A stretch of 63,954 nucleotides of DNA, counting the filler, from Octopus bimaculoides (Eukaryota), in NCBI RefSeq assembly GCF_001194135.2. It is 5 parts of 5 records of this genome, joined end to end, with 100 filler letters (N's around TTAATTAATTAA, not from the genome) between each part and the next. Parts side by side here need not be neighbours in the genome. Positions count along the whole stretch, not along the records: positions 1 to 6,174 come from NC_068991.1; positions 6,275 to 25,021 come from NC_069006.1; positions 25,122 to 33,319 come from NC_068986.1; positions 33,420 to 56,799 come from NC_068982.1; 1 more part is not named here. One strand, written 5' to 3'. Positions within the stretch are counted from its first letter, which is position 1, and every line of letters starts with the position of its first letter. Positions 3,756-44,457 of the stretch are shown here, in pieces. A model generated the notes under the pieces. The model saw only the letters and a program-made list of their open reading frames with translations, was not told where the DNA came from and did no database searches. The translations under genes and the position numbers were made by a program.

Positions 3756-3878
3756 GGGCTTCTTTTAGTTTCCGTCTACCAAATCCACACACAATGCTTT
3801 GGTCGGCCCGAGGCTAAAGCAGAAAACAGTTGCCCAAGGTAGTGGGACTGAACCCATGTGGTTGGTAAGCAAGCTACT
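3756..3878 (-). mobile_element. SINE-A 5' half whose head is interrupted just after the A box
   Basis: Matches 51945-52085; head sequence stops at AAGTAGCTTGCTTACC where a different element joins. Confidence 0.85.
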
Positions 3879-4395
3879 TTATTTCATATGAATTGGCCAT
3901 TAAGGCCTTACAAAGAAGGGACAAACAAGGACAGACAAACATAAAGTAGCTTCGGGCTGGACACAGACATTAATGGGATGAGGGTGATAACAAAAAGGAT
4001 TAAATAAAAAGTGGGAGCGGTACCGGCGCCCGCCGACCGATAACCCCTCGAAAACATTGTTCATTACAAATCACATAATCACAATTTACAACTTTCACCG
4101 TTCCTGGTTACTTCAATCCTCCACGTCCGGGCCCCTAAGCAAGATTCCTGCTGCCTGCAGGAAAGCCGGTGTTGGCAGGCCCGGATCCACGAAAGCAAAC
4201 TCCTCCTTGTCACATATCTTCTCAATTTCGTTTTCCTCATTTTCACTTATGACCTCCGCACACACCTGCAGAGGCCTACATGGGAGATCCATAAGGACCG
4301 AGTCGAACCTTGGACGGTCCAAAAAGTCATTCAAAAATATTTCTACCGGCCCTCCCCTGACGTAACAGACAATGAGCTCTGGTTCCTCAATATCT
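3879..4395 (-). mobile_element. 3' portion of a non-LTR retroelement (possibly L1/Tx1 group), 5' end lost in the gap
   Basis: Its terminal ~170 bp is homologous to 43988-44066 and to 60172-60311, the latter having a 16-bp TSD. It ends ATGAAAT(AAA). One frame is open for 94 codons to 4113 but no domain is recognised. The clade call is inference. Confidence 0.55.
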
Positions 4396-5304
4396 NNNNN
4401 NNNNNNNNNNNNNNNNNNNNNNNNNNNNNNNNNNNNNNNNNNNNNNNNNNNNNNNNNNNNNNNNNNNNNNNNNNNNNNNNNNNNNNNNNNNNNNNNNNNN
4501 NNNNNNNNNNNNNNNNNNNNNNNNNNNNNNNNNNNNNNNNNNNNNNNNNNNNNNNNNNNNNNNNNNNNNNNNNNNNNNNNNNNNNNNNNNNNNNNNNNNN
4601 NNNNNNNNNNNNNNNNNNNNNNNNNNNNNNNNNNNNNNNNNNNNNNNNNNNNNNNNNNNNNNNNNNNNNNNNNNNNNNNNNNNNNNNNNNNNNNNNNNNN
4701 NNNNNNNNNNNNNNNNNNNNNNNNNNNNNNNNNNNNNNNNNNNNNNNNNNNNNNNNNNNNNNNNNNNNNNNNNNNNNNNNNNNNNNNNNNNNNNNNNNNN
4801 NNNNNNNNNNNNNNNNNNNNNNNNNNNNNNNNNNNNNNNNNNNNNNNNNNNNNNNNNNNNNNNNNNNNNNNNNNNNNNNNNNNNNNNNNNNNNNNNNNNN
4901 NNNNNNNNNNNNNNNNNNNNNNNNNNNNNNNNNNNNNNNNNNNNNNNNNNNNNNNNNNNNNNNNNNNNNNNNNNNNNNNNNNNNNNNNNNNNNNNNNNNN
5001 NNNNNNNNNNNNNNNNNNNNNNNNNNNNNNNNNNNNNNNNNNNNNNNNNNNNNNNNNNNNNNNNNNNNNNNNNNNNNNNNNNNNNNNNNNNNNNNNNNNN
5101 NNNNNNNNNNNNNNNNNNNNNNNNNNNNNNNNNNNNNNNNNNNNNNNNNNNNNNNNNNNNNNNNNNNNNNNNNNNNNNNNNNNNNNNNNNNNNNNNNNNN
5201 NNNNNNNNNNNNNNNNNNNNNNNNNNNNNNNNNNNNNNNNNNNNNNNNNNNNNNNNNNNNNNNNNNNNNNNNNNNNNNNNNNNNNNNNNNNNNNNNNNNN
5301 NNNN

Positions 5305-5487
5305 CTCCAACCTTCTTCAGGTGTCTTGGGGAAATTTCGAACCTGGGTTCTCATTCATAAGGTATTTTTCGATATTATTATTATTATTGTTGTTGTTGTT
5401 GTTATTATTGTTCAGGTCACTGCTTGGAATCGAACTCGGAATCTTGGGGTTAGTAACCCGCACTCTTAACCACTAGGCCATATGCCC
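5305..5487 (-). mobile_element. tRNA-like head + (AAC/AAT)n spacer + start of a hammerhead-like core, truncated by the gap
   Basis: Minus strand: A box TGGCCTAGTGG, B box GAGTTCGATTCC (head 5413-5487), then GACAC-CTGAAGA-AGGTTGGAG into Ns. Confidence 0.65.
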
Positions 5488-5519
5488 GTCGAATGTAAAT
5501 AATGTATTGATAAATGTAT

Positions 5520-5683
5520 TAGATAGATAGATAGATAGATAGATAGATAGATAGATAGATAGATAGATAGTTAGATAGATAGATAGATTGATTCATAGAT
5601 AGATAAATAGATAGATAGATAGATAGATAGATAGATAGATAGATAGATAGATAGATAGATAGATAGATAGATAGATAGATAGA
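5520..5683. repeat. (AGAT)n tetranucleotide microsatellite
   Basis: Direct reading. Confidence 0.95.
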
Positions 5684-42468: not shown

Positions 42469-42530
42469 GTCAGGTGATCTTCACATGTCAGGTGATTTTC
42501 ACATGTCAGGTGATCTTCACATGTCAGGTG
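42469..42530. repeat. 18-bp tandem repeat GTCAGGTGATCTTCACAT, about 3.4 copies
   Basis: CAGGTG at 42471, 42489, 42507 and 42525. Confidence 0.9.
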
Positions 42531-42775
42531 GTCCATCCCGGTCTATGTATTTTGTAGCTTGTTCTCAGTAAATAAATACTACAGGGCCCAGTGCATTAAT
42601 TTTCCCGGGGTCTATAATGCTGCTAAAGCATCTCAGCCATCATCGCAACTACAACCACAAGACTCTCAGATATCTCCTTACATAAACAATCCCGATAAAG
42701 ATGATCTTAATATACACGTGCAGCTAATTCAAAACAAACTAAAACTGCAGTTTTTCTTGTTTACTTGTTTCAGTC

Positions 42776-43318
42776 TTAGTTTTCGAGCACCTTTCGGAGT
42801 ATTCGAGAGGTTCCAAGCAGTGCTGTTTTCTGCAAGTGCTCCACCCTTATTGCAGCTCCTATTTATTCCACATACCTCTCGAGGTTTTTGCTCACTATTC
42901 CCAGGGATCCGACAATTACCGGTACTACTGCTACCTTTTTCATCCACCACAGCTACTTAACTTCCCAAGCTAACCTGTCATATCTCTCGACTTTTCTTTC
43001 TTCCTTATCGCATACCTTGTTGCCAGCTGGGCATGCTATATCTATGATCCAGCATAGTTTTCTTTCTCAATTAAGATTATGTCCGGCTTCCTATTCTCAA
43101 TCTCATGGTCGCACTGAATCATAAAGACCCATAGGATCTTTGCATTTCTATTTTCGACAATGCTTTCAGGTTTGTGGTCGTACCAATTTTTTGCTCTGTC
43201 AAGTCCATACTTGTTGCAAAGTATCCAATGGACAAGCCTTGCTATATTGTCGTGGCATCTTTTATATTCCTTCTGGGCTAGTGGCGTACATTGGCTGGTA
43301 ATATGCCATACGGTTCCA
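42776..43318 (-). mobile_element. R4/Dong-clade fragment (zinc knuckle + RLE), 5' junction on (TAA)n
   Basis: TVWHITSQCTPLAQKEYKRCHDNIARLVHWILC...KILWVFMIQCDHEIENRKPDIILIEKE; same family as 20376-20822. Confidence 0.9.
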
Positions 43319-43955
43319 ATTATTATTATTATCATTATTATTATTATTATTATTATTATTATTATTATTATTATTATTATTATTATTATAATGATGATGA
43401 TGTGGAGGGGGATTATTATTATTTATGTGGATACGAGATAAAACCAGCCACTCTCGTCTTAAAGGTTATCAAAAAATCGCTAATGATTGTATAAAAACAC
43501 ATGATAACAACTATCGGACATTCAATGCTTGTGTGGATACAGCTGCTATCTCTCTGGAGTAACACTTAGGAGTTGCCTAAGCCACCCAGGTGGATAAGAG
43601 GAGTAGACTAAAATGTCAACAACCTTCGCCATCTAACCGGATATTTAGATTCCGTCACATGTGTAATGAACAATACACGCACAATGTCCCAGTTACATCT
43701 TATGAAAATAAAAAAAGAACTGGAAAATACGGAGATATTCTGCACTCGAAACTCTTAATGAGTAATGAAATCGCTTTTAAGGCATGGACGCTAGATTTTC
43801 AGAAAAAAATTCTGACGCCGAATGAAATTAAACAAGATTTTCATTAACGCCAAATCTATATTATCAAAAGATGAACGGAAACGAGATTTCAGTGACAATA
43901 ATAACTTCTTCACAGGGAAATATTAATTCATTTTGATAATGAAAAAATATTAACC

Positions 43956-44457
43956 AGGAGTGGCTGTGTGAAATATTTAATCGATACAGCTACTTCACCC
44001 CTTTTATGTTTGTCTGTCCTTGTTCGTCCCCTCTTTGTAATGCCTTTATGGCAAATATTTATGAAATAAAGTAGTTTGCTTACGAACCACATGGTTCCGC
44101 GTTCATTCCCACTGCATGGCCCCTTGGGCACTACTATAGCCTCGGGCCGACCAAAGCCTTGTGAGTGGATTTGGTAGACGGAAACTGAAAGAAGTCCGTC
44201 ATATATATATATATATATATATATATATATATATATATAAATGTGTATGTGTGTGTCTGTGTTTGTCCCCCCAACATCACTTGACAATCGATGATGGTGT
44301 GTTTACGTACCCGTAACTTAGCGAGTTGGCAGAAGAGACCGATAGAATAAGTACTAGGCATCCAAAGAATAAGTCCTGGGGTCGATTTGCTCGACTAAAC
44401 GTGATGCTCCAGCATGGCCAGTCAAATGACTGAAGCAAGTAAAAGAGTAAAAGAGAG
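43956..44457 (+). mobile_element. SINE-A, full length, with a ~96-bp insertion (43971-44066) after the A box
   Basis: GGAGTGGCTGTGTG | insert | AAGTAGTTTGCTTACG; the insert is homologous to 3879-3950. Confidence 0.88.

Follow-up and report, generated by a model that had tools for sequence, protein, structure and literature searches.

How do retrotransposon tails come to lie at one and the same position inside separate copies of a short interspersed nuclear element (SINE)? The question is raised by a 63,954-nucleotide stretch of Octopus bimaculoides DNA (assembly GCF_001194135.2), hereafter the window, which consists of five joined stretches of the genome; three related 3' ends lie on three separate stretches, and two of them adjoin the head of a repeat here named SINE-A. 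An original prediction, made from the window, had proposed that a retrotransposon targets this SINE, and the coordinates that it gave for the three copies were all borne out by re-reading. Searches of the genome (2.34 Gb in 145,327 contigs) showed that the prediction was incomplete: the system comprises at least four kinds of element, and it includes an antisense motif in the 3' untranslated region (UTR), missed before, that co-varies with a base of the target. We read the whole as a site-specific system of the L1/Tx1 group in which this motif would act as a short RNA guide, pairing with the top strand of the target and choosing the SINE variant, and to this reading, which is drawn from sequence, we give about an even chance.

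Repeated insertion at the SINE-A head

When 3' ends were collected by element sequence alone, the flank being ignored, 96 distinct ends were obtained, and 94 could be scored after two had been dropped for N. Seventy-nine of the 94 adjoin the 15-mer AAG[A/T]AGCTTGCTT[A/C]C just behind the SINE-A A box (a match at >=11 positions) and 15 are off target, in searches that score the best 40 candidates and so favour query-like copies. The 3' flanks are thus not random, as the proposal of SINE-A targeting had supposed. As background, 58 intact SINE-A heads were counted in the DNA fetched (about 1.18 Mb, overlapping in part), 31 of them with the A form of the target (AAGAAG), 23 with the T form (AAGTAG) and 4 with another form; the A type is the older, with a divergence of 12% against 6.5% for the T type (n = 16 and 13). 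SINE-A contains motifs that resemble A and B boxes; ARAGORN called 0 genes in it, and Rfam gave neither a U2 nor a tRNA match on one intact head. Ohshima and Okada are said to have described, in 1994, the tRNA-derived OR and OK SINE families of octopus (cited in PMC4758252), to one of which SINE-A may belong.

That these insertions were made repeatedly can be read from their outer edges. Target-site duplications (TSDs) measure 13-17 bp in 39 of 51 automated calls, a few of which are nested or doubtful; several insertions have private variants common to both TSD copies, 5' junctions vary from copy to copy, and the full-length elements L227, L250 and L252 are bounded by TSDs. Variable 5' ends together with individual TSDs argue for repeated targeting, as had been proposed, and not for one composite SINE with a single shared 5' junction. 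The assembly is gappy around these repeats, which would suit a composite subfamily or an assembly artefact copied as a unit; besides the 5' ends and the TSDs with their private variants, however, there are tandem nests at the TSD, full-length elements between a SINE stub and a SINE body, and four unrelated element bodies at the one site, and this explanation is refuted, with a probability that we put close to nil.

In the window, the common target can be seen together with a difference between the copies that lie on it. Copy 1 (3880..4395, minus strand; located by genome search at G000:C11) is the 3' 516 bp of a non-autonomous element whose only open reading frame (ORF) is of the ORF1 type, here family A (about 2.3 kb when whole), and it runs to an N gap (4396-5304) in which its 5' part is lost. 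On the minus strand ...ATGAAATA adjoins AAGTAGCTTGCTTACC at 3879, from which insertion site onward the T-type host SINE-A (AAGTAG...TTACC) occupies 3756..3879 (minus), with a presumed 3' TSD copy at 3865-3879. Copy 2 (43971..44068, plus) is a 98-bp, 5'-truncated 3' end of an autonomous Tx1-type long interspersed nuclear element (LINE) that matches the 3' ends of L118 and L131. The 5' stub of its host SINE-A, GGAGTGGCTGTGTG, lies at 43957..43970 (plus) and includes TGGCTGTGTG, which is A-box-like by the RNA polymerase III (Pol III) consensus; like copy 1, copy 2 ends in ATGAAATA, and the AAGTAG of the SINE head then follows from 44069, the aligned part of the T-type host body covering 44069..44200 (plus). 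Copy 2 is without a TSD, only 1-2 target bases being missing. Copy 3 (60172..60311, minus; G000:C9) is the 140-bp 3' end of a short-UTR subfamily of family A with the weak motif GCTTCT; as described in the original prediction, it has a perfect 16-bp TSD (60156..60171 and 60312..60327) at a non-SINE, off-target site beginning AAAGAAG. The claim that the same 3' end had been inserted twice therefore holds for the SINE-A position and for a common tail, but not for the elements: copies 1 and 3 belong to family A, copy 2 is a truncated autonomous LINE, and only the last 67 nt are common, at 88%.

Several further observations concern the target. In the nests, newer elements lie at the TSD of an earlier insertion and chain different families in one SINE (L007, L015, L050, L074, L080, L135, L231, L261), and where a flank seems not to be SINE, it is in some cases the 5' end of an insertion made earlier at that TSD. 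A separate target matching the CTGTGCTTCT motif of the copy 3 family was ruled out, most of its relatives being at the same SINE site. One off-target insertion, L024, has a 16-bp TSD beginning AAGTAGC (1500-bp flank read), and its host sequence may be a decayed reverse copy of 5S rRNA, which it resembles. Finally, behind a T-type TSD L076 has a 15-mer like the A-type target, and L219 has a T-type 5' flank and an A-type 3' flank across an N gap; possibly these mixtures are carry-over of a parent's upstream flank, or mis-joining.

The elements that share the target

The autonomous LINE is best seen in L227, a 5.6-kb element bounded by a SINE stub, a TSD and a SINE body. Its ORF1, decayed but with a CCHC knuckle, lies ahead of ORF2, as it does in L233, and its ORF2 is broken by a stop and a small gap. 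ORF2 has an N-terminal APE endonuclease, a reverse transcriptase (RT) and a C-terminal CCHC zinc finger, the ORF1 upstream being separate; the APE and RT domains are found in L227 (PF03372, E 8e-8; PF00078, E 2e-15), zf-RVT in L231 (PF13966, E 2e-6), and the best solved-structure match of ORF2 is human L1 ORF2 (E 2e-35). The elements bear the signature of target-primed reverse transcription (TPRT), with variable 5' truncation, TSDs and no long terminal repeats (LTRs). In a quick RT tree (LG+G4, 45 RTs, midpoint root) the LINE groups with U2-inserted, Keno-like metagenome elements, with a Shimodaira-Hasegawa-like approximate likelihood ratio (SH-aLRT) support of 92, and is set apart from fish and amphibian elements, two of which have PF02994. 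Placement in the L1/Tx1 group, and the Tx1-type affiliation that had been guessed from the window, fit the ORF2 domains and this side of a tree that holds no named Tx1 reference. The U2 small nuclear RNA (snRNA) insertion that defines Keno is not seen in this LINE, whose flanks are SINE-A heads.

Two families are ORF1-only. The relatives of copy 1 in family A have an ORF1-like frame that includes a CCHC knuckle, and they lack an RT from there to the 3' end; in the window the C-terminal 93 codons of the frame are found by translation at 4114..4394 (minus), and in L003, L008 and L020 the frame continues upstream into its CCHC-bearing part. The 4114..4394 frame has no significant Pfam match; three ORF1 pieces scanned gave nothing significant, and the ORF1 piece of L227 that was scanned gave no hit. 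Family B, about 1.45 kb, is the second such family, and an ORF downstream in L015, considered as an autonomous partner, was ruled out as such and belongs to this second family instead. The 5' ends of family B (L073-L092) begin with CTTCCGG, formed partly by the TSD, and TGCGCATGCG, which resemble ETS and NRF1 promoter motifs.

The fourth kind is SINE-B, a repeat of about 240 bp with the head GGCGGCGAGCTGGCAGAAACG and a tail resembling that of the LINE. It has 164 exact matches at the SINE-A site, and each of the 30 loci read has its own 5' junction. From the likeness of their tails and their common site, SINE-B and the Tx1-type LINE are likely to form a SINE-LINE partner pair. SINE-B (L298-L327; L051, L037, L241, L018, L194, L288, L142) inserts also in heads of its own family at AAGAAACGTTAG.

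An antisense motif that co-varies with the target base

The LINE and family A have in common, about 70 nt inside the 3' UTR as counted from its end, the motif AGCT[A/T]CTT, which is the reverse complement of the first bases of the target over 8-12 nt. In copy 1 it reads AAGCTACTTTAT (3941..3952, minus; variable base 3947) and is exactly the reverse complement of the junction at 3871-3882, the two making a perfect inverted repeat of 12 bp (shuffle P 0.0004 over the 9 nt that belong to the target); in copy 2 it reads AGCTACTT (43988..43995, plus; variable base 43992). The motif has been retained in two otherwise unlike UTR contexts, with a shuffle P of 0.0004-0.003 in three of four long-UTR copies.

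Exact-pattern counts from four whole-genome scans gave 48 copies with motif A and flank T, 1 with A and A, 30 with T and A, and 0 with T and T, so that 78 of 79 are concordant, the lone discordant copy (A/A) having a T-type second diagnostic base. Because exact patterns fix the flank, a flank-unbiased set of long-UTR copies was also scored, and in it all 43 on-target copies were concordant and 4 were off target. The Fisher p of 6e-21 for the association overstates it, the copies being related. Trees were consulted in which the motif base was masked, non-element flank was trimmed and rows of <85 or <100 nt were excluded (L151, L189, L203, L207, L080). The family A tree (49 rows) has 5 flank and 5 motif changes, where shuffles have a mean of 16 and a minimum of 10; the autonomous tree (49 rows) has 7 flank and 6 motif changes, against a mean of 16.6 and a minimum of 10. 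Over both trees there are about 11 separate motif/target switches. Copy 2 (motif A, flank T) provides a case within the window, as it is the sister of two copies with motif T and flank A (L273/L275). In mosaic SINE heads (L159, L163, L112, L275) the motif tracks the paired base and not the second diagnostic base, and no other column among 1,546 in the 3' 1.56 kb tracks the motif base, in a scan that grouped copies by that base and in which the motif's own perfect score is trivial.

It might be supposed that protein variation or timing lies behind this association, endonuclease variants or waves of SINE subfamilies deciding the target and the motif base merely travelling along. In the available part of PMC4494074 target choice by non-LTR elements is held to be mainly determined by the endonuclease, and the two SINE-A types do differ in age. 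Such an account does not say, however, why the travelling base should be complementary in about 11 switches across autonomous and non-autonomous trees, and copies of opposite state can be identical or almost identical over their last 95 nt (L273/L275 against copy 2). No endonuclease column separates 7 T-type copies from 4 A-type ones, the latter being partly linked across N gaps and one frameshifted, and the endonucleases cluster by lineage rather than by target type. Timing fails because the two targets were present together and the youngest clade of the autonomous LINE is specific for A targets, T targets having existed at the time; T-only lineages, in turn, had A targets available, since the A type is older. 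We regard this explanation as largely refuted already and as very improbable.

A second proposal reverses the direction of influence. Protein or flank would set the target, and the motif would be copied or corrected from it at or after insertion, by fold-back of complementary DNA (cDNA) or by mismatch repair of a hairpin. The switches are commoner than in most A/T columns (5 and 6, against means of 0.6 and 1.5 for other A/T columns), so that a templated process may add to them, and the motif of L414/L122 mirrors a flank variant. Yet pre-insertion C-to-T variants present in both TSD copies are unmirrored in 4 of 4 cases (L054, L059x, L074, L096), only one of eight copies with a G-to-A flank has a mirrored motif, and motif states are structured by clade rather than scattered. 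Rewriting at each insertion is thus unsupported by the TSD and flank variants, and rewriting in general seems to us improbable.

A possible RNA guide

The motif has the sequence of the primer strand and can therefore pair either with the top DNA strand of the target or with RNA of a read-through flank. DNA pairing is favoured because one mutation explains a switch and because discordant copies are nearly absent. On this reading the APE domain would nick the bottom strand just ahead of AAG, the top strand would be nicked about 15 nt downstream and reverse transcription primed, as in standard TPRT. The basic site and an AAGAA default would come from the protein, perhaps with priming at the 3' end, as the partners without a motif suggest; the motif would then base-pair with AAG[A/T]AGC on the displaced top strand, possibly after leaving a stem formed with RNA of the read-through flank, and a single point mutation in the motif would retarget a lineage. 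Strand exchange that uses both pairings is counted here under the guide explanation. Stated in full, the claim is that a natural RNA guide exists in a eukaryotic LINE, that its motif pairs with target DNA during TPRT, that single mutations have repeatedly retargeted lineages, and that specificity is partly RNA-programmable; we would put this somewhat short of an even chance.

Family B and SINE-B reach the site without a motif, and the motif is thus unnecessary for the site or for an A bias. Family B copies use the A form in 14 cases and the T form in 4 of 18, without a heritable target type (4 changes against 4.5 in shuffles, 18 rows). At the SINE-A site SINE-B stands at 97 A to 3 T among the first 100 of its 164 matches, so that a strong base bias arises without a motif; among 15 incidental copies of SINE-B, 7 are in heads of its own type, 2 at SINE-A sites and 6 elsewhere, with A at the fourth base in 14 of the 15. 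SINE-B targeting is loose, with A by default. A guide is not required for targeting; what goes with the motif is a strict and heritable choice, including that of the non-default T form.

The motif-less copies of both families on target weigh against the guide reading, and so do several other points. In the short-UTR subfamilies of family A the motif is weak, with L052 discordant and L059 and L109 mismatched; these subfamilies also have more off-target insertions. The pairing is limited to the 8-12 nt of the motif, and independent pairs on well-supported branches are few (2 in family A, about 4 in the autonomous tree), below what a sign test needs, with none opposite in direction. To these may be added the surplus of switches and the small, partly linked endonuclease sample described above. 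The element ends in AATAAA and there is no poly(A) at its junctions, which suggests that its RNA reads through into the flank, and when 20 nt of flank are added to 7 long-UTR copies a motif-flank RNA stem folds with a pair probability of 0.8-1.0 at the variable base. Co-variation of this kind is expected whether the motif pairs with RNA or with DNA, and sequence cannot separate the two.

These last points lead to a third alternative, in which the read-through SINE flank pairs with the nicked primer strand, the target type is inherited with that flank, and the motif only closes a stem, to which selection has matched it. The variable base is the fourth from the primer 3' end, where, according to the accessible text of PMC3649969, L1 priming needs matches; priming by R1Bm and SART1 is helped by RNA of the downstream target (PMC7265360, in the part available), and homology arms in the RNA can give R2 a different target (PMC13586686, on Fell et al. 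2025, likewise), so that the model has good precedent in priming by sense flanks. The A bias of SINE-B without a motif is also in keeping with it. Under this alternative, however, each of the roughly 11 switches needs an off-type insertion and a compensating mutation, yet discordant copies number 1 in 79; family B should inherit its flank type, and its tree carries no such signal (at low power, with 5 T of 18 rows). A G-to-A change at target position 3, confined to the 3' copy in 4 of 4 insertions with a visible 5' copy, is weakly against it as well, as if a run of A and not the true flank had been copied. Across 3830-4390, two raw RNA runs were shallow for either mate direction and revealed no start or end sites by which read-through could be judged. 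We consider a stem with the flank, as the whole explanation, to be the main rival but less likely, and prefer pairing of the motif with target DNA.

The G-to-A change is found in the first bases of the 3' flank in 8 copies of several subfamilies (L408-L415), each of them in a SINE that is T-type as judged by the second diagnostic base, and G is retained in the 5' copy of the TSD in all four visible cases; the change may be the footprint of an A-run templated at priming. An AAATAG flank common to L122 and L126 was ruled out as an inherited flank, since unrelated subfamilies have it too, and in the 3' copy alone. A test of top-strand against primer-strand pairing by the wobble spectrum was uninformative because C-to-T at position 7 is common in intact heads (10/58).

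Other features of the window

A GC-rich segment bounded by GAGGGG...CCCCTC, at 4010-4050 (minus) and in relatives, is the best-conserved part of the family A 3' UTR across subfamilies and is likely to be a stem-loop. Contigs from a second-species run cover 30 of 30 bins of 3830-4390 in short pieces, and relatives of family A may exist there. Just past the gap that hides the 5' end of copy 1, at about 5420-5490 (minus), is a tRNA-like repeat head on which ARAGORN made no call, and a SINE-B-type head with a different tail, starting at 45821 (plus), passes straight into a SINE-A body near 46014.

Comparison with known systems

SINE targeting by a Tx1-type element taken alone extends a known kind of behaviour; the co-varying antisense motif is the new feature. 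The available text of PMC4494074 describes Tx1 families with targets in other transposons, in U2 genes and in microsatellites, among them Xenopus Tx1 in Tx1D, crocodilian Tx1-Mar in Mariner-N4_AMi with its partner SINEU, and Tx1-9_AMi in Harbinger. As there described, the transposon-targeting LINEs resemble the octopus element in an ORF2 of APE, RT and zinc finger, a CCHC ORF1, a fixed site inside another repeat and a SINE partner that shares the target. They differ in that the octopus target is a SINE head, which joins the Tx1-type targets named in that text and is used by at least four kinds of element, including two ORF1-only families and a SINE at the same site, and in that a motif antisense to the target co-varies with it; such a motif is not mentioned in the available part of the paper. 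L1-Tx1 families have been recently active in Octopus vulgaris according to the main text of PMC13282606, in which, so far as it is available, the terms 'target site' and 'nested' are absent. In the literature searched we found no report of SINE-A as a target or of an antisense 3'-UTR motif; Repbase or supplements may already list the target.

Keno, a U2 snRNA-specific family of the Tx1 clade (PMC4494074, available part), invites comparison through the Keno-like elements on the same side of the RT tree, which likewise occupy one position in a small-RNA-type multicopy sequence. They differ from the octopus LINE in A-rich tails, an antisense match of at most 5-6 nt (3 junctions), an RT identity of about 35-40% and another target. 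The metagenome LINEs L328, L337, L338, L339 and L340 lie in U2 snRNA genes, and L338, L339 and L340 have U2-derived sequence also upstream of their ORFs; L338 has one 7-nt antisense match that may be chance. Of 80 loci of distant relatives from metagenomes (25-40% identity), 21 were examined, and at the tested spacing none had an inverted repeat of >=9 nt.

HeT-A is an ORF1-only, non-autonomous LINE of telomeres. Families A and B resemble it in encoding only an ORF1-like protein and would rely on the RT of a partner, but they occur as dispersed single insertions and short tandem nests. Dada DNA transposons, as described in the available part of PMC8869645, insert near the A box of tRNA genes with 6-7-bp TSDs and so also land at the Pol III A box of a multicopy, small-RNA-type sequence; there, however, the targets are true tRNA genes and the mobile element is a DNA transposon, whereas the octopus element is a retrotransposon with TSDs of about 15 bp and a SINE target. 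In SART1, R1Bm and R2 the RNA of the element can influence priming and, in some R2s, target choice (PMC7265360 and PMC13586686, in the parts available). The sequences concerned, as there described, have the sense orientation relative to the target and bind the primer strand close to or at the 3' terminus of the RNA, whereas the octopus motif is internal and antisense and shows natural single-base co-variation.

Credit for target choice by APE-type LINEs has gone mostly to the endonuclease. In the octopus system an RNA base follows a target base through about 11 natural switches, and these offer a way to test, at the level of one nucleotide, whether the RNA of a retrotransposon reads its DNA target. 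Should the motif pair instead with a read-through flank, the RNA structure of a retroelement would include its host site and co-evolve with it. In group II introns, through pairing of exon-binding and intron-binding sequences (EBS-IBS), and in the bridge RNA of IS110, an internal RNA segment pairs with target DNA and specificity changes by co-variation. The octopus motif, too, is an internal RNA segment that is complementary to its target and co-varies with it. It differs in being 8-12 nt long and set atop a protein specificity, and in its APE and TPRT chemistry, with no reverse splicing or recombinase, pairing with DNA being only inferred. Should that pairing be real, it would be a eukaryotic parallel to targeting by group II introns and bridge RNAs, and a lead for RNA-programmable gene insertion.

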